This document shows positions 2,622-62,603 of a DNA stretch of 64,000 nt, one piece after another. The DNA comes from Candidatus Heimdallarchaeum aukensis. Its GTDB lineage: Archaea > Asgardarchaeota > Heimdallarchaeia > Heimdallarchaeales > Heimdallarchaeaceae. Numbering within the stretch: position 1 is the first letter of the stretch; every line of letters starts with the position of its first letter. The notes below the pieces were generated by a model. It was not told where the DNA came from, ran no database searches, and saw only the letters and a list, made by a program, of their open reading frames with translations. The stretch spans positions 672,001 through 736,000 of the forward strand of contig CP084166.1 in the NCBI GenBank assembly GCA_021513695.1, in the 5' to 3' direction. Position numbers and translations under genes: made by a program.

Positions 2622-3350
2622 TTGCGAATTTCTAAGAACACAATAAAATTAAGAGAATACTCTATTCCGTATAGTATTGAACTTAGAGATGTAAAATACG
2701 CAAGAATTGAAATATTACCAACAAAAAAAATACGATTAATTTTCCCAAAAGGATTAGAAAACATTGATAATAAGAAGATATTAAATGAACATAAAGAATG
2801 GTTAAAAAAAAGAATTCAAAGAATTGACGAATCATTAAAAAAAATAGGCTTTAGTTGGAATAAGATAGGAGAGCATGAAATAGTTTTTGGAAAGAGATAC
2901 CAACTAAGAATTTACAGAAGCTACTACGATTCTGTTTTCTTTGAAGGTTCAATAATTTCAGTATCTGTTCGAGATATTGATAATGCTTTAAACTACCTAA
3001 GATCAATAATATATGCTGAATTTTCTAAAAAGGTTGAAACTTTCACAAATTTCTTTGCAAGAAAAATGAATGTAGAAGTAAAAAAGATTTCAATTAAAAA
3101 ACAAAAAAATATCTGGGGGAGCTGCTCAACTAAAGGAAATATAAATATCAATTTTCGTGCAGCTATATTGAGTGATGAACTATTGATGTTCTTAATTGCT
3201 CACGAAGTGGCACATCTTCAACATCCTAACCATGGACCTGGCTTTAAACAACTTCTTTCTTCCTTTTTTGAGGATATTAAAGAAAAAAATGATTTATTGG
3301 AAGCTTTTTGGTTTATTTCTCATAGTTCCAAAATTTTTTCTTTTGAATAA
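2622..3350 (+). CDS. YgjP-like (DUF45) metal-dependent hydrolase, M48-related
   Basis: Motif AHEVAHLQHPNHGPGF matches the HExxHxxxxNH..F signature of the YgjP/DUF45 family. Size about 240 aa. Confidence 0.65.
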   Translation: MRISKNTIKLREYSIPYSIELRDVKYARIEILPTKKIRLIFPKGLENIDNKKILNEHKEWLKKRIQRIDESLKKIGFSWNKIGEHEIVFGKRYQLRIYRSYYDSVFFEGSIISVSVRDIDNALNYLRSIIYAEFSKKVETFTNFFARKMNVEVKKISIKKQKNIWGSCSTKGNININFRAAILSDELLMFLIAHEVAHLQHPNHGPGFKQLLSSFFEDIKEKNDLLEAFWFISHSSKIFSFE

Positions 3351-3439
3351 TCAAATCTCAACTTCTAATCATTTTTAAACGATAAACCGACAAGTTTAAA
3401 TAGTTTATAGGGGGCATATATTTACTCAATATAAAGTGA

Positions 3440-4678
3440 ATGAAAATGAGTCCATTTGAGATAAAGATTGATGAGGAGAAAAAGAAATTAGTGAAAGAGC
3501 TAATAAAGAAATTGCACCAAGGAGAAAATATACAAGAAGTGAGAAAGCAGTTTAAAGAAGTATTAAGAGATATGAATGCTTTAGAGATCACACAAGTAGA
3601 ACAGGAATTAATTAAAGAGGGAATGGATCCAAGAGAGATTTTTTCTATGTGTGACATACATTTAGAAGTGTTTAAAGAAAACCTAAGTACAAATTTGGAT
3701 TTAGCTCCACCAGGACATCCTATTCATACGTTAATGCATGAGCATGTAAAACTAGTCGAATTTGGAGAAAAGTTGTTCCAAACGACCAAGGATTTAAGAA
3801 AAGTGAAAGATTTTCCTTTTGCAGGAAACATTTTAGGAGCTATTCAAGATATTGTTAACCATTTTAAAGAAGCAGAAAAGCATTACTTAAGAGAAGAGAA
3901 TATTCTATTTCCATACTTGGAAAAACACGGAATTACGCAACCACCCAAGATTATGTGGATGGATCATGATCGTATTAGAGAATTAAAGAAGGAGATTTTT
4001 GAACTAGTAGAAGGACGAAAAATAACGGACTATTCTGAGTTTGTTGATAGACTTGAAAAGGCAAGTTTAGCATTAGCTGAATACCAAAGTGGTCATTTTG
4101 AGAAAGAAAACAAAATTCTATTTCCAACTGCTATGAAAGTTATTTCTGAAGAGGAATGGAAAGATATAACAAAGGAATTTAATGACATTGGTTATTGCTG
4201 TTTCTCACCTAAAGAAGCTGTTGAAGCAGTAGAAGAAGAACAAACTCAAAAAGCTACACTCGACTCAGGAATAATCGAATTTGAAACTGGAAAAATAGAT
4301 GTTAAAACATTAGAAGCAGTCCTAGATACACTTCCTTTTGATATCACGTTTGTTGATAAAAATGATAGAGTAGCCTATTATAGTAATTCTAGCGAGAGAC
4401 TGTTTGTTAGAACTAAAGCTATTATTGGAAGAACAGTGCAAAATTGCCATCCTAATAAAAGCATTCATATAGTAAACAAAATCATCAATGATTTTCGTGA
4501 AGGAAAGAAAGACAAGGCTGAATTTTGGTTCAGATTAGGAGACAAATACGTTTACATTCGCTACTATGCAGTTAGAAGTAGAGAAGGAGAATATTTAGGA
4601 ACTTTAGAAGTCAGCCAAGATATAGCACAAATAAAACAAATCGAAGGTGATAAGAAGCTTTTAGATTGGGAAGATTAA
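3440..4678 (+). CDS. DUF438/hemerythrin-like domain protein with C-terminal PAS domain
   Basis: HPIHTLMHEH and later His/Glu-containing helices resemble hemerythrin-like cation-binding motifs. The C-terminal approx 110 aa (ITFVDKNDRVAYYSNSSERLF...) look like a PAS fold. Confidence 0.55.
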   Translation: MKMSPFEIKIDEEKKKLVKELIKKLHQGENIQEVRKQFKEVLRDMNALEITQVEQELIKEGMDPREIFSMCDIHLEVFKENLSTNLDLAPPGHPIHTLMHEHVKLVEFGEKLFQTTKDLRKVKDFPFAGNILGAIQDIVNHFKEAEKHYLREENILFPYLEKHGITQPPKIMWMDHDRIRELKKEIFELVEGRKITDYSEFVDRLEKASLALAEYQSGHFEKENKILFPTAMKVISEEEWKDITKEFNDIGYCCFSPKEAVEAVEEEQTQKATLDSGIIEFETGKIDVKTLEAVLDTLPFDITFVDKNDRVAYYSNSSERLFVRTKAIIGRTVQNCHPNKSIHIVNKIINDFREGKKDKAEFWFRLGDKYVYIRYYAVRSREGEYLGTLEVSQDIAQIKQIEGDKKLLDWED

Positions 4679-4693
4679 AAGGAGGAAATAAAA

Positions 4694-4924
4694 ATGGTAA
4701 AATATAAAATAACTATTAATCGAGATGAATGTATAGCTTGTGGATTATGTTATTCAGACGACCCTGAACATTTTAAAGCTGATGATTCAGATATTTCAAT
4801 GGTTGTTGGAGGAGAAACAACCGACGACTTATCAGAAGGACACTTTGATGATGACGAGATTGAAAATGTTAGAGATATAGCTTCTGAATGTCCAGCAGAG
4901 ATTATACATGTAACCGAAGAGTAA
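4694..4924 (+). CDS. small ferredoxin (single Fe-S cluster)
   Basis: CIACGLC...ECP pattern, 76 aa, acidic. A strong GGAGG Shine-Dalgarno sits 7 nt upstream. Confidence 0.65.
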   Translation: MVKYKITINRDECIACGLCYSDDPEHFKADDSDISMVVGGETTDDLSEGHFDDDEIENVRDIASECPAEIIHVTEE

Positions 4925-4932
4925 ATCTCTTC

Positions 4933-4941
4933 TTTTTTTTT
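4933..4941 (+). terminator. T9 run after ferredoxin gene (possible archaeal oligo-T terminator or spacer)
   Basis: tcttttttttt immediately after the stop at 4924. The next gene starts at 4953, so read-through is possible. Confidence 0.2.
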
Positions 4942-4952
4942 GGTGATTAAAG

Positions 4953-5870
4953 TTGAGATTTCCTTGTGAATATGTTACTTCTGAATTTTTACCTGGTTTA
5001 AGGATCAGAGTCAGTCATTTGTTACGTGAAGCAGGATATTCTCAAAATGAAATTGCTGAAAAACTCGGTGTTAAGCAACCTGTTGTAGTAAGTTATCTTA
5101 AAGCATATGAAAAGAGAATTATAAAAGAAAAAGAGGACAATTTTCATTTGGATAACTTAGCTAACGAAATAACTAATGCTATTTTGGAGGGTAAATCTAC
5201 AGCTTTTTTGATTCGAACAGTTTGTACTCGATGTAAGTCTTTAAGAGTAGATAGTTTCATCTGCACTCAACACAAAAAACTTATTCCAGAGTTAAGTAAC
5301 ATAAAAAACTGCGACTTGTGTATGGGCTTTCCAGATAAAATGCCTACAATAGAAGAACGTAAACATATTAAAGATGAAATGATTGAGATGTTCAATTTAC
5401 TTACTTCGTATAAAGAATTCATTAATTGGATACCTGAAATTGGTGGACAAATTGCTCATTGTGATGATAAAGCTCTAGAATTAGATGATGTTGCCAGTTT
5501 TCCAGGAAGAATAGTGAAAGTTAAAAACGAAATTCGAAGATTAAGTGACCCTGAATTCGGTGAATCAAAAACAATGGCTCATTTATTAATCTGGGTTAGA
5601 AAATTTCAATCTAATATTAAGTGGATTTTAAGCATTAAAAACAAACCTGTTCTTCAAAAGAAACTGAAAAATCTAAATTTACCTATTTTAGAAACTCAAG
5701 AAATTGACACAAAATGGAAAAAAACTTTAGACAAACTTTCAAAAAATCCAGATATTTTCCAGTTTAGATTTTTGTTAGATAGTGGCGGAAAAGGATATGA
5801 GCCTATCACATATATCTTTGCAGAAAACAAAAACGAACTTGAAGAACTTTTGAAAAAAGTTTTTGCTTAA
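4953..5870 (+). CDS. HTH-domain protein, possibly ThiN-type regulator
   Basis: N-terminal SQNEIAEKLGVKQPVVVSYL helix-turn-helix. The C-terminal half contains IPEIGGQIAHC, reminiscent of the ThiN domain. Weak. Confidence 0.35.
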   Translation: MRFPCEYVTSEFLPGLRIRVSHLLREAGYSQNEIAEKLGVKQPVVVSYLKAYEKRIIKEKEDNFHLDNLANEITNAILEGKSTAFLIRTVCTRCKSLRVDSFICTQHKKLIPELSNIKNCDLCMGFPDKMPTIEERKHIKDEMIEMFNLLTSYKEFINWIPEIGGQIAHCDDKALELDDVASFPGRIVKVKNEIRRLSDPEFGESKTMAHLLIWVRKFQSNIKWILSIKNKPVLQKKLKNLNLPILETQEIDTKWKKTLDKLSKNPDIFQFRFLLDSGGKGYEPITYIFAENKNELEELLKKVFA

Positions 5871-50562: not shown

Positions 50563-51477
50563 TCAAAAAGTATTTTTATTAGATATTTTTAATTTTTCTA
50601 GAATCAGTTTAGCAATGTTTTCGATTGTTTCTTGAATATCTTTAACAGATTTATCTTCTGAATCTATTTCAACAACAGTTTTTTTCTCAATCATCGCTTG
50701 AGTAAAGATGTGGTTATGCGGTATTTTCGCAATAACAGGAAAGTCTTTTTCAAATTTATCTTCAATCTCTTGAGTTATTTCCATGTTTATGTCACTTTTA
50801 TTGACTACTATAAAACCTGGAATATTGAACTGTTTTAAAAGCTCTAGAACTCTTTCTAAATCGTGTTTTCCAGAAATGGTTGGTTCACTAACAACTATAG
50901 CCAGATGGCTTCCAGATAAAGAACTTATAACCGGACAGCCAATACCTGGAGAGCCATCAATTAAAACCAATGATTTATTCTTTTCTTTTGCAACCTGTAA
51001 GGCTTTCTTTCTTACTTCTGCAACCAACAATCCGCTACTTTCTTCTCCAGGAACAAGTCTTGCATGAATCATTTTTCCAATTCTTGTATCAGAAACAAAA
51101 TAATTACCACTAACTCTTTCAATCATAGTTATTGCATCAACAGGACATACATGTTTGCATAATCCGCATCCTTCACAACGTACTATTTCAATATTTAATT
51201 CTTGATCTATTGCTCCATAACGACATGATTCATAACATTTCATACATTTTGTACATTTATCAAAATCTATTACGGCCTTTTTTGTTCCATAATAATCTGT
51301 TTTTTCTGATTTCTCAGGAGAGAATATAAGATACAAGTCAGCAGCGTCTACATCAGCATCTGCAAGAATAGAATAATTTTGAAGTAAGTAGGCTAAAGAA
51401 GAAATTAGTGAAGTTTTTCCAGTTCCACCCTTACCACTTATTACAGTTACTTGTTTTATATCTGTATTATCACTCAT
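50563..51477 (-). CDS. MinD/ParA-superfamily P-loop ATPase with inserted 2x[4Fe-4S] ferredoxin domain
   Basis: Deviant Walker A GKGGTGKTS. Two Cx2Cx2Cx3CP motifs (CTKCMKCYESC, CEGCGLCKHVCP). Confidence 0.8.
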   Translation of the reverse strand: MSDNTDIKQVTVISGKGGTGKTSLISSLAYLLQNYSILADADVDAADLYLIFSPEKSEKTDYYGTKKAVIDFDKCTKCMKCYESCRYGAIDQELNIEIVRCEGCGLCKHVCPVDAITMIERVSGNYFVSDTRIGKMIHARLVPGEESSGLLVAEVRKKALQVAKEKNKSLVLIDGSPGIGCPVISSLSGSHLAIVVSEPTISGKHDLERVLELLKQFNIPGFIVVNKSDINMEITQEIEDKFEKDFPVIAKIPHNHIFTQAMIEKKTVVEIDSEDKSVKDIQETIENIAKLILEKLKISNKNTF

Positions 51478-52315
51478 TTTTCACTTCCTCCGTAATCTCT
51501 TCTATCATCTGTTGAAATTTCTCTTTCCATTCTGGAAAAGTAGTTAGGAAATTATTACCAACAGAATAGGATTTAGCTATCTTCAGATCAAAAGGAATAC
51601 GTAAAAGAATAGGAATATTATTTTCTTTGCAATAGTTTTCTAATTCTTCATTGCCTATTCCCTCTTTATTTATTATCACTCCAAATTTTTTGTTTAACTG
51701 ATATAAGGTTTCTACTACAACTTTCATGTCAGAAAGACCAAATGGTGTGGGTTCTGCAACGACTATTACATAGTCAACATCTATTACTGTTTCTACCATA
51801 GGACAAGCTGACCCAGGAGGAGAATCAAATATCACATAATCCTTCTTTTTATCTACTTGTTCCTTAAGAGTAGAAATTATAGGTGTTGAGAGTTCTTCTC
51901 CAACTATAAGTTCACCATAGTCAAATCTTCTATTTCCTTTTATTCCTGAAAAGATTTTACCTAAACTCCTATTTTTTTCAGTTATTGCTTCTGTAGGACA
52001 AACAACAGAGCATACTCCACATCCATGACATATTCTATCAAAAACTAATATTTGATTCGGTAAATTAGCTAAAGCATTATATTCACAATTTTTCACACAT
52101 TCACCGCATAAAATGCACTTTGAGCTATCTATAACAGGAATAGGAATTTGTGCGTCTTTTACATGCTGTGTTCTTATATCCAAAAATAGTGAACAATTGG
52201 GTTCATCTACATCTGCATCGATTAATTGTACATTATCCAAGGATAAAAACAAACTTGTGGCAATGGTTGTTTTTCCAGTTCCACCTTTACCTGACACTAC
52301 AGCTATTGAAATCAC
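51470..52315 (-). CDS. MinD/ParA-superfamily P-loop ATPase with inserted 2x[4Fe-4S] ferredoxin domain (paralogue)
   Basis: GKGGTGKTT. CILCGECVKNC and CHGCGVCSVVCP. Overlaps the downstream paralogue by 8 nt. Confidence 0.8.
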   Translation of the reverse strand: MISIAVVSGKGGTGKTTIATSLFLSLDNVQLIDADVDEPNCSLFLDIRTQHVKDAQIPIPVIDSSKCILCGECVKNCEYNALANLPNQILVFDRICHGCGVCSVVCPTEAITEKNRSLGKIFSGIKGNRRFDYGELIVGEELSTPIISTLKEQVDKKKDYVIFDSPPGSACPMVETVIDVDYVIVVAEPTPFGLSDMKVVVETLYQLNKKFGVIINKEGIGNEELENYCKENNIPILLRIPFDLKIAKSYSVGNNFLTTFPEWKEKFQQMIEEITEEVKNE

Positions 52316-52381
52316 TTTCTTTACCTTCCTACATTTGTTTCAAATTAAAAAAAATAAACAAAAACATCTTTAATTGTGTAT

Positions 52382-52756
52382 TTAATGGTCATGATCATGG
52401 TCATGTTCGTGGTGCCCACAACCATCAGTTTTTGAAGCTAGTCTCAGTTTTCCTTCTTTGAAATTGTCAATTACATTCTTTACAGTTCCTTCAGCACCGA
52501 CATATACCCCAAGATTGAGTTCTTCTGCTAGTTGAATAGCTCTTGAACCTATTCCTCCACAGAGAAGAGCATTGCTATGTTTAGCTAAAAATTCAGCAGG
52601 CATCCCTACACCGCCAAAATGATTGCTTTCATTGTTAATTATTTTAAGTTCATTTGTTTCTTCATCCCAAATTGCATATAATGGAGCTCTTCCAAAATGT
52701 GCTGATACAGGGGAATCCCACCCTTTATCGTCTTCTACAGGAATTGCATATCTCAT
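52382..52756 (-). CDS. dinitrogenase iron-molybdenum cofactor biosynthesis-family (NifX/NafY-like) protein with His-rich C-terminal tail
   Basis: Small alpha/beta NifX-like pattern (HFGRAP..., LLCGGIGSRA). Tail GCGHHEHDHDHDH. Confidence 0.7.
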   Translation of the reverse strand: MRYAIPVEDDKGWDSPVSAHFGRAPLYAIWDEETNELKIINNESNHFGGVGMPAEFLAKHSNALLCGGIGSRAIQLAEELNLGVYVGAEGTVKNVIDNFKEGKLRLASKTDGCGHHEHDHDHDH

Positions 52757-52767
52757 CTTTTTTCCTC

Positions 52768-53097
52768 CTAAACTTTTTTTAGTTCATTTTTTTCTAGTTT
52801 CTCTATCAAATTTTTCCAAGGTTCAACTTGACCTTCATAAATCGTGATATTGGAAGCTCGTAACACTTGTTCTGCATTAGGGCCTACTCTTGGAGCAATA
52901 ACTGCTTTTACCCCTTGAGAAACAAGAAATTCAGAAGCTTTAACTCCTGCTCCTCCTCTTGCCATAGCAGAGGGATTTTCATGATATTCATATTCTTTTG
53001 AATCTGAATCGTATATTAGATAATATAACGCTCTTCCAAATCTACTTGCCATTGAAGCATCTTCAGATCTTTCATCTATTGGTATTCCTATTTTCAT
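52768..53097 (-). CDS. NifX/NafY-like (dinitrogenase FeMo-cofactor family) protein
   Basis: MKIGIPIDE...SRFGRA...GVKAVIAPRVGPNA pattern. Confidence 0.7.
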   Translation of the reverse strand: MKIGIPIDERSEDASMASRFGRALYYLIYDSDSKEYEYHENPSAMARGGAGVKASEFLVSQGVKAVIAPRVGPNAEQVLRASNITIYEGQVEPWKNLIEKLEKNELKKV

Positions 53098-53402
53098 AAA
53101 ATCACTTCTTTATCTTTGTTTAATTCTGGTTCAGAGTCGAATTTTATAGCTTGATTTTCAAATAAAGCAGTAGCTATTTTTTTTCTTGCAATTCTTAAAT
53201 CTCTACTATAACTTGACTGAGATATACCCATCTTTTTTGCTGCTTCAACTTGCTTCAATCCCAAGTAATCAGCATAGTACAACACAGTTATTTCTTCTTT
53301 TGTTAGTATTTGTGTCTCCAGCTCCTTAAATGGTATAGCCACTGGCTTGAACACATGTTCGTTTACATCTATACAACAACGTTTTATCTTCCTCTGAACC
53401 AT
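53094..53402 (-). CDS. DUF134-family predicted DNA-binding protein
   Basis: VFKPVAIP...LTKEEITVLYYADYLGLKQVEAAKKMGISQSSYSRDLRIARKKIATAL matches the DUF134/UPF0251 pattern (sigma-70 region-4-like HTH). Confidence 0.6.
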   Translation of the reverse strand: MVQRKIKRCCIDVNEHVFKPVAIPFKELETQILTKEEITVLYYADYLGLKQVEAAKKMGISQSSYSRDLRIARKKIATALFENQAIKFDSEPELNKDKEVIL

Positions 53403-53535: not shown

Positions 53536-53967
53536 TCAGTCAGTTATTTCTATCTCAATAAGGTTATGATTAATAATTGAATGAGCAATCCTTTTTCTAA
53601 GACCTTTAAGATAGCGCCAAACACTTGTTTGAGATATTCCTAATTTCTCGGCTATCTCTTTCTGAGTTAGCTCCTCTACATCAGCCATTTTTAAAATTTC
53701 TAATTCAAAACTGGATATAGCAAGAATATTATGAGGTTGATTTATTCTACGATTAATAGGGATAGAATAAGCTACAGGAGGACGCCCTTTCCTAAAATGT
53801 TTTCTACGTATGCCATGCGGACCATGCATTCCTCCTCTTCTCATTCCTCGCCTAGGTCCTCCGCCCATACCTCTTCTCGGAGGAAAGAGTTGATTATTAA
53901 GATTAGTTTTTTCTTCTTCTTTTCTCGTTTTTTCACCGTTTGATGGTTCGTCATTCATACTGTTCAC
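53536..53967 (-). CDS. DUF134-like HTH protein with Arg/Gly/Met-rich N-terminal low-complexity extension
   Basis: C-terminal ELEILKMADVEELTQKEIAEKLGISQTSVWRYLKGLRKRIAHSII. N-terminal PPRRGMGGGPRRGMRRGGMHGPHGIRRKHFRKGRPP. Confidence 0.5.
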   Translation of the reverse strand: MNSMNDEPSNGEKTRKEEEKTNLNNQLFPPRRGMGGGPRRGMRRGGMHGPHGIRRKHFRKGRPPVAYSIPINRRINQPHNILAISSFELEILKMADVEELTQKEIAEKLGISQTSVWRYLKGLRKRIAHSIINHNLIEIEITD

Positions 53968-54004: not shown

Positions 54005-54355
54005 TTACTTATTCAATTTCTGTTTTTCTTCTTCTAGTAAAGATATTTCTTTTTGAAGATACTCTATTTGCTTTTCGATTAATGAAATCTCATAATCTAT
54101 GGCGTTTTCATTGGATGGTTTTCCATATGGATCCCATTGTGCATTTGTTGGTGGATTTTCTACTCCTTGATATTCAGGCATTGCCCACCAACCCCTTGGT
54201 CTGTCGGGGAAAAAGTCACAATTTGGACTTATCCATCTACGTCCTCCAAAACCTGCACCAAATCCTCTTCTAAATCCAAATCCTCGTCCATAACCGTATC
54301 CTCTTCCATACCCATATCCGGGGCCATATCCATATCTTCTATATCTGTATGCCAT
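54005..54355 (-). CDS. DUF5320-like low-complexity (Tyr/Gly/Arg-rich) protein with C-terminal coiled coil
   Basis: MAYRYRRYGYGPGYGYGRGYGYGRGFGFRRGFGAGFGGRRW followed by a Trp/Pro-containing linker and the heptad-rich ISLIEKQIEYLQKEISLLEEEKQKLNK. Confidence 0.5.
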   Translation of the reverse strand: MAYRYRRYGYGPGYGYGRGYGYGRGFGFRRGFGAGFGGRRWISPNCDFFPDRPRGWWAMPEYQGVENPPTNAQWDPYGKPSNENAIDYEISLIEKQIEYLQKEISLLEEEKQKLNK

Positions 54356-54514
54356 TTTTTCACCTCAAATGTTTTTGAGTTATTACTCAATATTAGTTAG
54401 ACTTTGCCGATATATAAAGTTTATGTTTTGCGTTATAATTCAAAAATTGTTTTCAGTAATTACACAACTACAAATTTAAAAAAGGTTGAATTGGAAATAA
54501 GTCGGTAGATAATA

Positions 54515-55792
54515 ATGGTAGACGTGAAACCTTTTCGAGGGATAAGATATACTGAAAAAGCAGGAGATATAGCAAATTTAATTGCACAGCCATATGATAA
54601 AATTGATGAAGAAATGCAGAAAGAATACTATGAAAAATCAGAATATAATTACTGTAGACTAACATTACCAATGGAAGAAGACAGATATAATGTTGCTAGA
54701 AAAAGATTAGAAGAATGGTTAGCTAATGAAATACTACAAAAAGATGAAGACCCAGCCTTTTATGTTTATTTCCAAGAATTCGAACTTTTCGGAAAAAAAT
54801 TTATTCGTAAAGGCTTTATTGGAGCATTAAGACTACACCCATTTGAAGAAAATATAGTTCTTCCTCATGAGAAGACTCACAAAGGACCAAAAATCGACAG
54901 ATTAAACATGCTAAAAACAACTAAACACACTTTAGAACCTGGATTCATCCTTTATTCTGATAATGATAAAGTAACGATTAGTATTTTTGAAGAGGTTGCC
55001 CAAAAAGAAAAACCAATAATTGATGTAGTCGACAGTTTAGGAGCCAGAAATAGAGTATGGAAACTTACTGATCCCGAAAAAATAAAAAGAGTTCAAGAAA
55101 TTTTCAAAGATCAACAGTTAGTAATTGCAGATGGACATCACCGGTATGAAACAGCTTGTACTTACAGAGACATGAGAAGGGAAGAAAAGAAAGATTGGGA
55201 CGAAAATGATGCTTTTAATTTTAGAATGACTTATTTAGTTCCTGTAGAAGATGAAGGTCTAGTAGTACTTGCTACACATAGATGTCTAGCAAAAGTAAAA
55301 GTTACACCAGAACAAGAAGAGATTTTTAAGAAGTACTTTGAGATAGAGGAAATATCCAAAGAAAAAATACCTGAATTTTTGGAGAAAAACCAAGACAATC
55401 ATGTCTTTGTTTATTATCAAGATGGCAAAGCTAAATCTATGATTATGAAGGATCCTACCACAATCAATGAATTTGTTAAAGATAGAAGTGAAGAATACAA
55501 GAATCTAGATGTCGTAATTCTTCGAGACATGATCTTTCAAGGAATTATGGGACTATCAGATTTAAAGATAGATGATGATATTTTCTACGAGAGATGGTGG
55601 AATGAAGCAATTCAGAAAGTTGATGAAGGAAAATATAAAGTTGTTTTCATTCTCAATCCTACTAGAGCAAAACAAGTTTTAGCTGTTGCCAAAAATCATG
55701 AAAGAATGCCTCAAAAATCTACAGACTTCTATCCAAAAATGATTAGTGGTCTTACAATGATGAGTTTAGAAGATGGAGAAAAATTGAACTAA
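54515..55792 (+). CDS. DUF1015-like protein (full-length copy)
   Basis: N-terminal VKPFRGIRY...AQPYDKIDEE pattern and about 425 aa. Weak family recognition. Confidence 0.45.
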   Translation: MVDVKPFRGIRYTEKAGDIANLIAQPYDKIDEEMQKEYYEKSEYNYCRLTLPMEEDRYNVARKRLEEWLANEILQKDEDPAFYVYFQEFELFGKKFIRKGFIGALRLHPFEENIVLPHEKTHKGPKIDRLNMLKTTKHTLEPGFILYSDNDKVTISIFEEVAQKEKPIIDVVDSLGARNRVWKLTDPEKIKRVQEIFKDQQLVIADGHHRYETACTYRDMRREEKKDWDENDAFNFRMTYLVPVEDEGLVVLATHRCLAKVKVTPEQEEIFKKYFEIEEISKEKIPEFLEKNQDNHVFVYYQDGKAKSMIMKDPTTINEFVKDRSEEYKNLDVVILRDMIFQGIMGLSDLKIDDDIFYERWWNEAIQKVDEGKYKVVFILNPTRAKQVLAVAKNHERMPQKSTDFYPKMISGLTMMSLEDGEKLN

Positions 55793-57260
55793 AGTTTTCT
55801 AAACTCTTTTTTCTTCATATTTTTAATCTACTTTAATTGCATATCTTTTTTCTGCTTCTTTAGAATATAAAGCCAAGAGTTTATCGAAATTCTCTTTTTC
55901 TAGATAACCATGTGCTGTCATCATTTCAGTGAATCTTTTCGGGAATTTTTGATAAGCTTCTTTAAGACTAAAGCCTTCTGCATATTTGAACTGTAATCTT
56001 TTTCTCTGTATTTCTTTTCCTATTTTTAGTAGTCTTCATCAGTTCTGTTGATTTTTAAGCTCTCTAAAGCTTGAATTGTTGTATTCATATCGTATACTCC
56101 TCTAGCAAAAAGGCAAATAACCATGCTGTTTAGAACGTTTCTCCACTCTTCTTCATTCATTAGAGAATTCATTCCTTGTTCAAAAGTTATTGGTTTATTC
56201 AGTACTTTTTGGTCCAGTGAATAACCAGCGTTGTCTAGATGACTGTGTCTTCCACCAACGAGAAAACCCATAATAGCATAATATCCAGTTCTATAACCTG
56301 CAGGTTCTAGTTTTGCTACTCTTATACCGAAATCATTTCCGCCATATTTCTCTACAAGAGCTTCTACTCCCTTTGAAGCTGTATAATAAAGTTCGCTTTC
56401 TTCTGTAGCTTTAGATATTTTTCCGATGATAGATAAGAAATCATCCACCCTACCAAATCTAATTAATTCTCCTTCTGTGTCTTTAGGACTAATTAAGTTT
56501 CTTTCATATGCTTCAGCTAACCAAGCCAGAACAACTCCTGTAGATATAGCGTCCATTCCTTCTTTCTCAATAGCTTCAATTAGTTTTAAGATATCTTTGG
56601 CATTACCTATCTTAAGATTTGAACCAAGAGCATAGATGAGTTCGTAATCGTAAGATACAGCAATAGAGTGAATGTCAGCTACAGTTCCTTTTTCCCATCT
56701 TTCTCTTAAGATTGCTAAATGAATACAACCGATTGGACAACCTCCGCAAGCTACTCTTTTGCCTAACAATTCTGAAGCGAAATATTCACCAGAGATATTT
56801 TCAGCTTCTTCAAAGTAGCTTTCTGCAAAGTTCTTAGTAGGTAAGGATTTTAACGCATTTAGAGGTAATATTCCCGCAGCTGTCCCAAGAACATGATATT
56901 TGGCCATTAAATTTGTTTCAGTAGTTTTCTTGTATATTTCTCTAAACACTCTTCTATATTGTTTATAATTAGTATTTGACTCCAAAGAAATGGGTTGATC
57001 TCCGATAATTGCGAAACCTTTAACATTCTTGCTTCCTAAAACTGCGCCTAGACCTGTTCTACCGAAATGCCTTGTTCTGTCTACAGTTGCACAAGCATAA
57101 GGAATTAATCTTTCTCCTGCTGGTCCAATTGTTACCACAGAACGATTACCAGGATGACCTATCTTTTCTCTTATAATTCTACCAGTTGTATTGGGAGACA
57201 TATACATTAGAGGTTTAGCATTAACAAATTGAACTCCATCTTCATAAGAAACAAAGTAGA
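54801..57260. repeat. tandem direct repeat, copy 1 (approx 2.46 kb)
   Basis: Sequence from 54801 is repeated from 57261 with a 2460/2461-nt offset. Verified at multiple points; differences listed in findings. Confidence 0.9.
55823..57260 (-). pseudogene. aldehyde:ferredoxin oxidoreductase, 5'-truncated and frameshifted duplicate copy
   Basis: Identical to the C-terminal approx 480 codons of the AOR gene at 58283-60085, except for a 1-nt deletion near 56034 (agtcttc versus agttcttc) that terminates the frame (…INRTDEDY*). The N-terminus is cut by the duplication junction at 57260. Confidence 0.6.
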
Positions 57261-58252
57261 TTATTCGTAAAGGCTTTATTGGAGCATTAAGACTACACCC
57301 ATTTGAAGAAAATATAGTTCTTCCTCATGAGAAGACTCACAAAGGACCAAAAATCGACAGATTAAACATGCTAAAAACAACTAAACACACTTTAGAACCT
57401 GGATTCATCCTTTATTCTGATAATGATAAAGTAACGATTAGTATTTTTGAAGAGGTTGCCCAAAAAGAAAAACCAATAATTGATGTAGTCGACAGTTTAG
57501 GAGCCAGAAATAGAGTATGGAAACTTACTCCTCCCGAAAAAATAAAAAGAGTTCAAGAAATTTTCAAAGATCAACAGTTAGTAATTGCAGATGGACATCA
57601 CCGGTATGAAACAGCTTGTACTTACAGAGACATGAGAAGGGAAGAAAAGAAAGATTGGGACGAAAATGATGCTTTTAATTTTAGAATGACTTATTTAGTT
57701 CCTGTAGAAGATGAAGGTCTAGTAGTACTTGCTACACATAGATGTCTAGCAAAAGTAAAAGTTACACCAGAACAAGAAGAGATTTTTAAGAAGTACTTTG
57801 AGATAGAGGAAATATCCAAAGAAAAAATACCTGAATTTTTGGAGAAAAACCAAGACAATCATGTCTTTGTTTATTATCAAGATGGCAAAGCTAAATCTAT
57901 GATTATGAAGGATCCTACCACAATCAATGAATTTGTTAAAGATAGAAGTGAAGAATACAAGAATCTAGATGTCGTAATTCTTCGAGACATGATCTTTCAA
58001 GGAATTATGGGACTATCAGATTTAAAGATAGATGATGATATTTTCTACGAGAGATGGTGGAATGAAGCAATTCAGAAAGTTGATGAAGGAAAATATAAAG
58101 TTGTTTTCATTCTCAATCCTACTAGAGCAAAACAAGTTTTAGCTGTTGCCAAAAATCATGAAAGAATGCCTCAAAAATCTACAGACTTCTATCCAAAAAT
58201 GATTAGTGGTCTTACAATGATGAGTTTAGAAGATGGAGAAAAATTGAACTAA
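57261..58252 (+). pseudogene. DUF1015-like protein, N-terminally truncated duplicate copy
   Basis: Identical to codons approx 96-425 of the gene at 54515-55792, except GA to CC at 57530-57531 (Asp to Pro). The first in-frame Met is at 57368. Confidence 0.55.
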
Positions 58253-59723
58253 AGTTTTCTAAACTCTTTTTTCTTCATATTTTTAATCTACTTTAATTGC
58301 ATATCTTTTTTCTGCTTCTTTAGAATATAAAGCCAAGAGTTTATCGAAATTCTCTTTTTCTAGATAACCATGTGCTGTCATCATTTCAGTGAATCTTTTC
58401 GGGAATTTTTGATAAGCTTCTTTAAGACTAAAGCCTTCTGCATATTTGAACTGTAATCTTTTTCTCTGTATTTCTTTTCCTATTTTTAGTAGTTCTTCAT
58501 CAGTTCTGTTGATTTTTAAGCTCTCTAAAGCTTGAATTGTTGTATTCATATCGTATACTCCTCTAGCAAAAAGGCAAATAACCATGCTGTTTAGAACGTT
58601 TCTCCACTCTTCTTCATTCATTAGAGAATTCATTCCTTGTTCAAAAGTTATTGGTTTATTCAGTACTTTTTGGTCCAGTGAATAACCAGCGTTGTCTAGA
58701 TGACTGTGTCTTCCACCAACGAGAAAACCCATAATAGCATAATATCCAGTTCTATAACCTGCAGGTTCTAGTTTTGCTACTCTTATACCGAAATCATTTC
58801 CGCCATATTTCTCTACAAGAGCTTCTACTCCCTTTGAAGCTGTATAATAAAGTTCGCTTTCTTCTGTAGCTTTAGATATTTTTCCGATGATAGATAAGAA
58901 ATCATCCACCCTACCAAATCTAATTAATTCTCCTTCTGTGTCTTTAGGACTAATTAAGTTTCTTTCATATGCTTCAGCTAACCAAGCCAGAACAACTCCT
59001 GTAGATATAGCGTCCATTCCTTCTTTCTCAATAGCTTCAATTAGTTTTAAGATATCTTTGGCATTACCTATCTTAAGATTTGAACCAAGAGCATAGATGA
59101 GTTCGTAATCGTAAGATACAGCAATAGAGTGAATGTCAGCTACAGTTCCTTTTTCCCATCTTTCTCTTAAGATTGCTAAATGAATACAACCGATTGGACA
59201 ACCTCCGCAAGCTACTCTTTTGCCTAACAATTCTGAAGCGAAATATTCACCAGAGATATTTTCAGCTTCTTCAAAGTAGCTTTCTGCAAAGTTCTTAGTA
59301 GGTAAGGATTTTAACGCATTTAGAGGTAATATTCCCGCAGCTGTCCCAAGAACATGATATTTGGCCATTAAATTTGTTTCAGTAGTTTTCTTGTATATTT
59401 CTCTAAACACTCTTCTATATTGTTTATAATTAGTATTTGACTCCAAAGAAATGGGTTGATCTCCGATAATTGCGAAACCTTTAACATTCTTGCTTCCTAA
59501 AACTGCGCCTAGACCTGTTCTACCGAAATGCCTTGTTCTGTCTACAGTTGCACAAGCATAAGGAATTAATCTTTCTCCTGCTGGTCCAATTGTTACCACA
59601 GAACGATTACCAGGATGACCTATCTTTTCTCTTATAATTCTACCAGTTGTATTGGGAGACATATACATTAGAGGTTTAGCATTAACAAATTGAACTCCAT
59701 CTTCATAAGAAACAAAGTAGATT
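57261..59723. repeat. tandem direct repeat, copy 2
   Basis: See copy 1. The distal junction at 59720-59723 reads gtagatt|ggttctgg, where the unique AOR 5' sequence resumes. Confidence 0.9.
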
Positions 59724-60085
59724 GGTTCTGGAGATTTACCCTTTAAAATTATAACTCCTAAGTTATTAAAACGCATTGCTGTTGATAACCTTCCTCCAGC
59801 ATAAGATTCACCTAAATTGCCAGTTAATGGACTCTTAAAAACTGCACAAGTTTTGGAAGCAACGGGAAAATATGTATTTAGAGGTCCAATAGCAAAAATT
59901 ACAACATTTTCTGGAGAAAGAGGATCTACTCCTGTTTGAAGATGTTGATTGAGTAATTCAATACCTACACCTATTCCTCCCATATACTTATCAAAAAGAT
60001 TCTCTGATTCATAAATCTCGAATGAGAGATCACTTAAATTAATTTCTAAAATATTTGGATATAACACTTTCAACTCACCTACCAT
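58283..60085 (-). CDS. aor: tungsten-type aldehyde:ferredoxin oxidoreductase (AOR family), full-length
   Basis: About 600 aa. N-terminal MVGELKVLYPNILEINLSD...GGIGVG, GLGAVLGSKNVKG, and C-terminal AFOR_C-like helical domain. The likely start is the internal Met of the ORF-track protein (60085), giving a 7-nt overlap with the ferredoxin gene. Confidence 0.85.
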   Translation of the reverse strand: MVGELKVLYPNILEINLSDLSFEIYESENLFDKYMGGIGVGIELLNQHLQTGVDPLSPENVVIFAIGPLNTYFPVASKTCAVFKSPLTGNLGESYAGGRLSTAMRFNNLGVIILKGKSPEPIYFVSYEDGVQFVNAKPLMYMSPNTTGRIIREKIGHPGNRSVVTIGPAGERLIPYACATVDRTRHFGRTGLGAVLGSKNVKGFAIIGDQPISLESNTNYKQYRRVFREIYKKTTETNLMAKYHVLGTAAGILPLNALKSLPTKNFAESYFEEAENISGEYFASELLGKRVACGGCPIGCIHLAILRERWEKGTVADIHSIAVSYDYELIYALGSNLKIGNAKDILKLIEAIEKEGMDAISTGVVLAWLAEAYERNLISPKDTEGELIRFGRVDDFLSIIGKISKATEESELYYTASKGVEALVEKYGGNDFGIRVAKLEPAGYRTGYYAIMGFLVGGRHSHLDNAGYSLDQKVLNKPITFEQGMNSLMNEEEWRNVLNSMVICLFARGVYDMNTTIQALESLKINRTDEELLKIGKEIQRKRLQFKYAEGFSLKEAYQKFPKRFTEMMTAHGYLEKENFDKLLALYSKEAEKRYAIKVD

Positions 60086-60510
60086 TCTCCTGTAGCTTCT
60101 TCCATTACTAAAACACCAGTAGAGCAATATTGAACGCAAGCTCCACACTGACGACATACTATTGCTTTATTGATATCAACATCAATATGTATTGCACCAG
60201 GGATAGGACATGCTTCTATGCATTCTTGATTACACTTACTTGCATCACAAATTTCTCTGTCGACAATAACCCCTCCACCCTGTCTTGGTTTAATCGCTCC
60301 AGGAATAGGACAAGCAGGAGCACAAGGAGGAGATCTACAACCTCTACAGACTACGACAACATAATTGCGTTCTATTCCCCCACTTGCTTTAACTGTAATT
60401 GAACTACGATAATTAGACAATAATTTTTCATTTGTCCTAGAACAAGCATAAACACATTCTAAACAACCAATACATCTATCTAGATTTTTGACTCTTAATC
60501 TTTTGCCCAT
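60079..60510 (-). CDS. multi-cluster 4Fe-4S ferredoxin (AOR-associated electron-transfer subunit)
   Basis: Four Cys clusters: CIGCLECVYAC, CRGCRSPPCAPACP, CNQECIEACP, CRQCGACVQYC. Confidence 0.7.
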   Translation of the reverse strand: MGKRLRVKNLDRCIGCLECVYACSRTNEKLLSNYRSSITVKASGGIERNYVVVVCRGCRSPPCAPACPIPGAIKPRQGGGVIVDREICDASKCNQECIEACPIPGAIHIDVDINKAIVCRQCGACVQYCSTGVLVMEEATGEW

Positions 60511-60709
60511 AAATAAGATATGGATTTAAACCTTAAAAAAGAAATTGGTTCATTTTTTCTATTATTAAGACTTATTTGTAAATAAACGAGGAAAAAAGGC
60601 TTTGATTAAGTATCTAAAATATGCTTGTTAATTACTAAAATCTAAATAAAGTTTAAATTCTTTTACTTATCATTGTTTATAATCAGAAAAATCAAGTAGT
60701 TGATTACTA

Positions 60710-62038
60710 ATGCGTAAAGTAAAGATATCAGTAGTCTCATTATTAATAATTATAATTTCAGCAATTCTTTCAACTAACCAATTAGTTATAGTTGGACAAG
60801 TTGAAGAAGGGAAAAATTCTAGAGATTTAATAATTAATTCTTTCAATGCTACTGCTTCTGATAACTTTTTCAATGAAACAAAGGATCCAAGATATCACTT
60901 AATAACTAAACCCTTAACTCTATTATTTTATCCAAACAAAGGTTATCCTATAATTACTGAATATGACAAACAATTTTCTATTAAAGTTTCAGCTCCAGAA
61001 GAGACTACAGGATGGAATCTGAGTTTGATTTCAGAAACAGCTAACGTTTCGCTAGAAATTCTAAATACAAAGTTTGATTCTGAAAAAAAGAGATGGATCA
61101 TTGAAGTAAAACCAGAACAAGAAATTGAAGGATTATTTGATCTAAAACTTGTTTGCAGTGCAGGTAATGATTATCAAACTCATTCTGTAAAACTTGTGGC
61201 AAAATTTAGTTACCCCTTTTCATTTGTTCAAATAAGTGACAGTCACTTTCCAGGTTATGCTCCAGATATTAACAGTACAGCAATTGACCTTGAAGTAATC
61301 CAAAAAATCAAGGAGTTAAATCCTGATTTTGTAATCCACACGGGAGATGTAATTGATGGCCCAAATACGGTTTTTGTTGATCCTAATACAGGAAAATCAA
61401 TAGCAGCAGAAGTGCAACTTAAACTAGCTCTTTGGGCTTTAGATAAACTCGATGTCCCTGTTTTTATAGTTGCAGGAAACCACGATTTTGAAACAAGTAA
61501 TTTGATTCCAGATAACCCAGAGGAAGTGTGGAACAAATATTTTGGATATGGTCGTATTCAAAATTTCAGTTTTCTAGATTGGGATTTCACGGGATATAGT
61601 GTGTCTTTTGAAGGGTTATCCGATTTCTTTTATTCTTCATTGAGAGAGCATCTAGAACAAAACAGTAATGGTTCTGATGTCTTATATTATCATTATGATT
61701 TCAAAGAGCAAGCAACTAATATTCTAAAGAATTATAACATAGAGATAGCTTTATGGGGGCATGAGCACCGCGAAAGGTTTTACTATTCTCAAGGAACATT
61801 ATATCATTGCCAGGATGCAATGTTTAAGAATCAAGATAGCTATACTCTATTTACAATGGAAAGTGAAAACATTTTTACTGTGAAAGAAGAGACCTTCAAC
61901 ACTTCTACTTTTATAAGAGAAGAAACTGAAAGTCCAACTACTAAAACATCATTTCCTACAATATTATCACTGATTTTTCCTTTCTTTGTAACCACAATCT
62001 ATATGCTTAAAAGAAGAAAAATGTCAAGAAAAACATAG
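60710..62038 (+). CDS. secreted calcineurin-like metallophosphoesterase with C-terminal TM anchor
   Basis: Signal peptide, then FVQISDSHF, GDVIDG, GNHDF, WGHEHRE phosphoesterase motifs. C-terminal FPTILSLIFPFFVTTIYMLKRRK. Confidence 0.7.
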   Translation: MRKVKISVVSLLIIIISAILSTNQLVIVGQVEEGKNSRDLIINSFNATASDNFFNETKDPRYHLITKPLTLLFYPNKGYPIITEYDKQFSIKVSAPEETTGWNLSLISETANVSLEILNTKFDSEKKRWIIEVKPEQEIEGLFDLKLVCSAGNDYQTHSVKLVAKFSYPFSFVQISDSHFPGYAPDINSTAIDLEVIQKIKELNPDFVIHTGDVIDGPNTVFVDPNTGKSIAAEVQLKLALWALDKLDVPVFIVAGNHDFETSNLIPDNPEEVWNKYFGYGRIQNFSFLDWDFTGYSVSFEGLSDFFYSSLREHLEQNSNGSDVLYYHYDFKEQATNILKNYNIEIALWGHEHRERFYYSQGTLYHCQDAMFKNQDSYTLFTMESENIFTVKEETFNTSTFIREETESPTTKTSFPTILSLIFPFFVTTIYMLKRRKMSRKT

Positions 62039-62114
62039 CGAATAAGTAAAATTAACAACAGCCTTTATTTTTTTTTACTAAGATATAAATATATCAAGGA
62101 CTTTTATTATACAA

Positions 62115-62603
62115 ATGAGTATTGACATCGATTTGAGTCCTCTATCACACCCTTCGACTTTAAAGTTATTTTTATTTGCAAAATCTTGCTATCCTGATGA
62201 TTTTGGAGTGAGAGAAGCTAAAAGAAAATTAGAATTTCATAGCATAAGTAATGTCGCTTGGCACCTAAACAAACTTGAAGAAGCTGGATTAATCGAAAAA
62301 TTACCTTCAAACAGATATAAATTGCTAGAAAATAGTTTAAAAATTAAAGAAATTGAAGTCCCTGTAACACTAACAGCACAACTTATAAAAGATGAAATCA
62401 TTACAAAGAAGGTTTTTCTTTTATCTTTTATGATTACAGCAACAATAGCAACAATAATTGTAATTTTCTTCAACCCTTTAGTTGCAGCATTAAATGGGAT
62501 TTTTCTATTAGTTATTAATTGTGTATTTTATTTGGAAGAATATTTTTCAACTAAAAAACAACTTTCTTTTTACAAATGGAAAGAAAAAAAGAAGAATAAT
62601 TAA
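62115..62603 (+). CDS. membrane-anchored winged-helix (ArsR/MarR-like) protein
   Basis: SNVAWHLNKLEEAGLIEKLPSNRYKL wHTH followed by two TM helices. Confidence 0.4.
   Translation: MSIDIDLSPLSHPSTLKLFLFAKSCYPDDFGVREAKRKLEFHSISNVAWHLNKLEEAGLIEKLPSNRYKLLENSLKIKEIEVPVTLTAQLIKDEIITKKVFLLSFMITATIATIIVIFFNPLVAALNGIFLLVINCVFYLEEYFSTKKQLSFYKWKEKKKNN

Follow-up and report, generated by a model that had tools for sequence, protein, structure and literature searches.

Does the chromosome of Candidatus Heimdallarchaeum aukensis carry a young tandem duplication that begins and ends inside genes, or was a single-copy segment written twice during genome assembly? The question is raised by a 64-kb stretch of contig CP084166.1 (positions 672,001 to 736,000; referred to here as the window, with all coordinates counted from its first nucleotide), in which a 2.46-kb segment reaching from the middle of a DUF1015 gene to the middle of a gene of the tungsten-type aldehyde:ferredoxin oxidoreductase (AOR) family is present twice in immediate succession. 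The evidence presented below makes it likely that the join between the two copies exists in DNA and that it does so as a chromosomal tandem duplication. An initial annotation, made from the letters of the window and its open reading frames (ORFs), had set a very recent duplication beside an assembly artefact; a real join is now favored by contig breaks in independent read assemblies and by the single-copy state of relatives, and the artefact has become the unlikely of the two.

Direct comparison of the two copies showed that 54801-56033 is identical to 57261-58493 at an offset of 2460, with the dinucleotide at 55070-55071/57530-57531 as the sole exception, and that 56033-57262 matches 58494-59723 at an offset of 2461 with zero mismatches. 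The copies are direct, arranged head to tail, and abut with nothing between them (54801-59723). The recurrence of 54801-57260 at 57261-59723 that had been described initially was thus borne out, and the maximal copies are listed in Table 1. Chance cannot account for a match of 2.46 kb at 99.9% identity. Neither a second long repeat elsewhere nor any run of N, the join included, was found in the 64-kb window. With a slash marking the breakpoint, the right parental breakpoint reads ...AAAGTAGATT/ggttc (GTAGATT/ggttc) and the left parental breakpoint ...aaaaaaat/TTATTCG, and the sequence at the join reads ...AAAGTAGATTATTCG. The homology shared by the two parental breakpoints is limited to the dinucleotide TT (AAAGTAGATT/ATTCGTAAAGG at the join), which narrows the earlier estimate of 2-3 nt of junction microhomology to 2 nt. 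Besides the GA to CC change, the copies differ by a single T: copy 2 ('GTAGTTCTTC') has it at 58493 and copy 1 ('GTAGTCTTC') is without it after 56032, at unit position 1233 of 2463. Of the three differences counted initially, three nucleotides are indeed changed, although they represent two mutational events (GA to CC and one missing T) rather than three independent ones; the replacement of Asp by Pro that had been deduced from the first of these was reproduced by the same comparison. Both differences fall in 56033-57531, a 1.5-kb stretch across the join.

The join was examined in Logan, in which every SRA run has been assembled independently as a de Bruijn graph from raw reads. For a true tandem duplication, such a graph is predicted to hold the unit as a contig of its own, with flanking contigs that stop k-1 bases inside the unit. 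The partial gene products predicted for contigs of this kind were then looked up in Logan, and the value of k-1 (30) was taken directly from the overlaps between Logan contigs. Join k-mers cannot be invented by a de Bruijn assembler. Contigs of runs SRR15988954, SRR15988958 and SRR15988959 were either 100% identical to the window or differed from it by homopolymer errors only. In SRR15988954, contig _7362 (30.7 kb) stopped at window position 54830, contig _19524 was exactly the unit (2463 nt; 54801-57262 / 57261-59723) and contig _14780 (6.6 kb) began at 59694, with overlaps of exactly 30 nt at both unit boundaries. In SRR15988958, contigs ended at 54830, started at 54801 and ended at 59694. 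Across the two runs, six contig ends were located at the predicted base, and the 30-kb flank was otherwise unbroken. The full-length DUF1015 product was recovered from metagenome contigs of the Joint Genome Institute (JGI) only; the enrichment runs gave only fragments starting at the unit ends, and no enrichment-run contig with an intact DUF1015 or AOR gene was found, both runs breaking at both unit ends. The 600-aa AOR product of the window was not on record at all in the product look-ups. Because the contigs of both runs break at these positions, the reads of two libraries contain a second connection at both unit ends, and because the reads carry that connection, a scaffolding artefact is very unlikely as the origin of the join in the assembly. 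Co-assembled strain variation was considered as the main cause of the contig breaks and rejected; the breaks are not strain noise, given flanking contigs that continue uninterrupted over 30 kb and 6.6 kb, and both boundaries are exact in two runs.

The genome of H. aukensis was obtained from a metaSPAdes assembly of Illumina paired-end (PE150) reads, scaffolded by LRScaf with Nanopore reads amplified by multiple displacement amplification (MDA) and polished with Pilon at 346x; MDA was applied only ahead of the Nanopore libraries, and those reads were barcoded by polymerase chain reaction (PCR) (Wu et al. 2022, PMC8813620). We assumed that the SRR159889xx runs belong to this project. The contigs of SRR15988958 differ from the window in homopolymer length only and this run is probably Nanopore, whereas the contigs of SRR15988954 are error-free and this run appears to be Illumina-like. 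An MDA chimera is unlikely, since MDA preceded only the Nanopore libraries, yet the Illumina-like run branches too. In two of the SRR15988958 contigs inspected, _5958 (L035) and _654 (L041), only homopolymer indels were observed (A5-A7, T5-T8), together with a neighboring mismatch at the very end of L035. Logan k-mer assemblies of Nanopore runs also carry frameshifts, an example being a DUF134 product of 80 aa, not 102 aa.

A scan of genome contigs identified Ca. Heimdallarchaeum endolithica PR6 (CP084167.1) as the nearest species-representative genome. It is collinear with the window and single copy, its DNA being ~85-86% identical and its DUF1015 protein 91% identical at the amino acid level; the two sister species have been reported to share 88% average nucleotide identity and 90% average amino acid identity (Wu et al. 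2022, PMC8813620), and on this comparison the window is most likely from H. aukensis. Over the unit, identity was 98.9-99.4% for four metagenome contigs of the JGI (3300033141/48/49/50; L001/L037, L036, L038 and L039 in our numbering). All five relatives, that is, the four JGI contigs and H. endolithica, were single copy and uninterrupted through both breakpoints; a further 99% metagenome contig (L028) crosses the left breakpoint only and is uninformative. Between 14 and 20 substitutions separate the unit from the JGI strains, and as every one of them is common to both copies, the duplication is younger than the ~99% strain divergence.

With respect to the two inter-copy differences, the outgroups all carry GA and a base at the indel site, and the CC (Pro) and the T deletion are therefore derived. 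Each derived change sits in a non-functional copy, the CC in the DUF1015 fragment and the deletion in the AOR fragment, and none of 15 homologues has P at the position of Asp186, which is occupied by D, E, N or Q. This pattern fits relaxed selection on dead copies; the probability that both changes would land in dead copies by chance is p = 0.25 (two events). A nearby template, direct or inverted, that would explain the GA to CC change by template switching was searched for and none was found. In the read assemblies, GA is present in the unit contig of either run and the T in that of SRR15988954, so that the independent unit contigs have the ancestral allele at every variable site covered. None of the products of the derived alleles (the P-variant 294-aa ORF and 329-aa fragment, and the frameshifted 411-aa AOR fragment) was on record, although bubble popping could hide real ones. 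The odds that the two differences are real rather than unpolished errors are roughly even, and they may be residual polishing errors in the repeat. If they are errors, the duplication could date from the nine-month enrichment. The case made initially against an artefact on the strength of the differences is a weak one, the derived alleles being present in no independent contig and the unit contig being ancestral at both sites.

Several points weigh against a chromosomal tandem duplication. The join unitig, at 58 nt, is shorter than the Logan contig cut-off of 150 bp, and the support for the join comes indirectly, by way of graph topology; the Illumina-like nature of SRR15988954 is taken from its error pattern and not from metadata; the route from metaSPAdes through LRScaf to Pilon is prone to errors in repeats; and a variant confined to a subpopulation, an array of more than two copies or a circular form of the unit would produce the same Logan graph. 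This last point concerns an alternative which we regard as unlikely, namely that the join is real in DNA and that the two-copy chromosome is only the minimal loop traversal chosen by the assembler, the underlying state being an unstable polymorphism in part of the population, an array of more than two copies, or an excised circle of ~2.46 kb. The graph of left-flank, unit and right-flank contigs (L, U and R, with 30-nt overlaps) would indeed be identical for the subpopulation, amplification and circle cases. In bacteria, tandem duplications with kilobases of perfect homology are quickly lost by homologous recombination; heterogeneity would be expected here for the same reason, and the occurrence of the ancestral alleles in the independent unit contig and of the derived alleles nowhere else fits duplicated molecules as a minority. 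However, the join branch was kept through Logan/Minia graph cleaning in both runs, Pilon polishing at 346x left the join in the authors' assembly, and a circle formed at a 2-nt microhomology has no obvious replication origin or means of maintenance.

More doubtful still is an artefact of assembly or library, in which the true genome is single-copy and either the scaffolder concatenated two unit-bearing contigs or a recurrent MDA/PCR chimera was incorporated. MDA creates chimeras, and LRScaf scaffolding relied on MDA-amplified, PCR-barcoded Nanopore reads; moreover, the location of both differences in the stretch across the join fits unpolished errors, with the missing T (1233/2463) located where uniquely mapped short reads are least able to reach. 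The repeat here is direct, whereas chimeras generated by MDA are mostly inverted. Plain concatenation would double the TT (AGATT+TTATTCG giving TTTT) or leave Ns, but the join in the window is seamless and holds the TT once. Branch points were observed at exactly both unit ends in the Illumina-like and the Nanopore-like run and nowhere else in the 30-kb flank, and a single-copy genome without an alternative connection would have given Logan contigs that pass uninterrupted through the unit ends, like the JGI contigs. The locus resembles false tandem duplications in hybrid assemblies in its adjacent near-identical copies, in the combination of short reads with long-read scaffolding and Pilon, and in its odd differences where polishing is hardest; it differs from them in the seamless join with shared microhomology, in having no Ns, and in the branching of two-run k-mer assemblies at both unit ends. 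The least probable reading of all is an older, stably inherited duplication in which D186P and the frameshift would be genuine mutations that only the decaying truncated copies tolerate. The polarity of both changes against the five outgroups, their location in non-functional copies, and the D/E/N/Q occupancy of position 186 among the 15 homologues, with P never present, would all be in keeping with it. Set against this, the derived alleles were found in no independently assembled product, the unit contigs having GA in both runs and T in the SRR15988954 contig, and two events per 2.46 kb would make the duplication about one tenth as old as the divergence from the ~99% strains, an age that is long for an unselected perfect repeat to escape loss or gene conversion.

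The genes affected by the duplication are presented in Table 1. The labels given to them initially, and the description of the unit as running from mid-DUF1015 (+) to mid-AOR (-), hold by profile matches. The two genes are convergent, and the unit spans DUF1015 codon ~97 (+) to AOR codon ~121 (-), giving the layout DUF1015 5' part, first unit copy (U1), second unit copy (U2), AOR 5' part. Left flank plus U1 gives the intact DUF1015 gene and U2 plus right flank the intact AOR gene, and the two 5'-truncated fragments meet back to back at the join, pointing apart, with their own upstream regions gone. The locus consequently has the organization first proposed for it, one intact copy per gene plus two truncated copies diverging from the join.

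Table 1. Coordinates of the repeat copies, the join and the associated genes in the window.
Feature	Position	Strand	Length	Description
Copy 1	54801-57262		2462 nt	ancestral GA at 55070-71; one T fewer after 56032
Copy 2	57261-59723		2463 nt	derived CC at 57530-31; ancestral T at 58493
Join	57261-57262		2 nt	TT ends copy 1 and begins copy 2 (2-nt microhomology); join sequence AAAGTAGATTATTCGTAAAGG
DUF1015 gene, intact	54515-55792	+	425 aa	codons ~97-425 within copy 1
DUF1015 fragment, 5'-truncated	57263-58252	+		residues 97-425, Asp186>Pro; own promoter lost
AOR-family gene, intact	58283-60085	-	600 aa	from ATG at 60085; AFOR_N and AFOR_C
AOR fragment, 5'-truncated and frameshifted	55823-57261	-		residues 1-121 missing
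4Fe-4S ferredoxin-like gene	60079-60510	-		directly upstream of intact AOR, overlaps AOR start; outside duplication

The intact DUF1015 gene matched PF06245 at full length (E 1.6e-85, profile positions 1-324 of 325). When compared with the same Pfam family, the fragment lacks the N-terminal 96 residues and covers profile positions 135-324 only; an in-frame TAG stands directly ahead of the join in the DUF1015 frame, and the first ATG, at 57368, opens a 294-aa ORF. The intact AOR gene gave matches to the N-terminal domain AFOR_N (E 2e-56) and to AFOR_C (domains 2 and 3; E 3.4e-55), as do full-length members of the tungsten AOR family. Its nearest solved structures are P. furiosus FOR (1B25) and AOR (1AOR), at E ~1e-54, with which it shares both domains, whereas the fragment is without the N-terminal 121 and the C-terminal 70 residues. 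The frameshift previously ascribed to the T deletion was confirmed and is located in the 5'-truncated copy of AOR, where the loss of 1 nt after 56032 swaps the final 70 residues for DY and a stop, at 56026. The longest ORF of this fragment, 56026-57207 (393 aa), matches no more of AFOR_N than positions 141-198, and its AFOR_C match breaks off at position 291 of 385. No start codon was found upstream of 57207 in the AOR frame. Owing to this and to the in-frame TAG before the join, no chimeric ORF is created. Because both ends of the unit fall within genes, gene dosage does not rise, and with dosage unchanged a selective advantage is not apparent. Both truncated fragments are expected to be inert pseudogenes that are not expressed, and judged by their domain content neither would count as a functional member of the AOR or DUF1015 family. 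At the other end of the intact AOR gene, the ATG (60085) and the stop region of the ferredoxin-like gene share 7 nt (60079-60085), and this overlap suggests a co-transcribed ferredoxin-AOR pair. The mechanically listed AOR ORF of 624 aa (from 60157) is probably 24 codons too long.

How a chromosomal duplication of this form might have arisen can be proposed from its structure. The organization would be accounted for by a direct tandem duplication of a 2461-bp chromosomal segment, very young, in the Heimdallarchaeum enrichment-culture population. Illegitimate recombination, by unequal sister-chromosome exchange or by a replication template switch, would have connected, at the TT microhomology, a site within AOR (after 59723) with one within the convergent DUF1015 gene (before 54801). 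Such RecA-independent recombination, or a template switch between sister chromosomes, would yield a direct repeat with a join homology of 0 to a few nt. We infer a copy number of exactly two and fixation in the population; the event probably hitch-hiked in a clonal bloom. Searches for a transposase, an integrase, terminal inverted repeats, a target-site duplication, a tRNA at the unit ends and an Rfam match found none. Duplication mediated by a mobile element or insertion sequence was rejected, the unit consisting only of the 3' parts of DUF1015 and AOR, with no transposase, inverted repeats, tRNA or Rfam match.

RecA-independent tandem duplications with short junctions (join-point duplications) in Salmonella and Escherichia coli chromosomes are reportedly covered in a review by Reams and Roth. 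The present locus is like these in its head-to-tail direct copies without a spacer, in the joining of a downstream point to an upstream one at a microhomology of zero to a few nucleotides, in its single-copy ancestor, and in its near-identical copies, which imply a recent origin and an expected instability. It is unlike them in that the host is an Asgard archaeon and in that the unit begins and ends inside genes, which leaves every gene unamplified and brings no apparent selective benefit. To our knowledge, the recombination and repair enzymology of Asgard archaea is uncharacterised. The locus is probably an ordinary tandem duplication, transient in nature, which created two pseudogene fragments. 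It is highly improbable that it is instead a maintained structure, whether as an amplified or small-circle unit (resembling extrachromosomal circular DNA) or through expression of the 294-aa D186P ORF from a fortuitous AT-rich promoter as an N-terminally shortened paralogue. If true, a maintained structure would represent gene birth by partial duplication caught in the act, in the archaeal lineage closest to eukaryotes.

Other observations were made in the neighborhood of the repeat. Upstream of the duplication, 50563-53402 (-) encodes two CbiA/MinD-type ATPases with 4Fe-4S motifs, two small Nitro_FeMo-Co (NifX/NifB-like) proteins and two putative DUF134 regulators, and the gene order of this cluster is kept in all Heimdallarchaeum relatives fetched. 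Comparison with the ~98% identical JGI contig L001 revealed a 93-nt length polymorphism at 53832-53924, in the Arg/Gly/Pro-rich N-terminal region of a DUF134 regulator gene (53536-53967, -), and a second of ~65 nt at 54345-54409, in a Gly/Tyr/Arg-rich small ORF (54005-54355, -) which holds an 18/36-nt tandem repeat at 54257-54340. The long forms of both are present in JGI strains L038 and L039, and slippage within coding repeats of low complexity is the apparent cause of both. On the right-hand side of the AOR operon, positions 3296-5146 of JGI contig L036 (3300033148, Ga0366832_1009239) correspond to window ~60700-62600. The metallophosphoesterase gene of the window (60710-62038) encodes 442 aa, and in L036 it is called as a 233-aa piece and several small ORFs, with identity falling to 92% past 62324. 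Such a pattern suggests that, in an otherwise ~99% identical strain, the region just right of the AOR operon has been disrupted or has diverged in a strain-specific way.

For annotation of this genome, 57263-58252 and 55823-57261 should be treated as pseudogene fragments and not as extra DUF1015 or AOR paralogues, and D186P and the frameshift should be treated as unverified both in annotation and in genome comparison. A single event without a change in gene dosage says little about the expansion of Asgard genomes. What it would offer is one documented join at a 2-nt microhomology in a Heimdallarchaeum chromosome, indicating that illegitimate recombination or template switching operates there.

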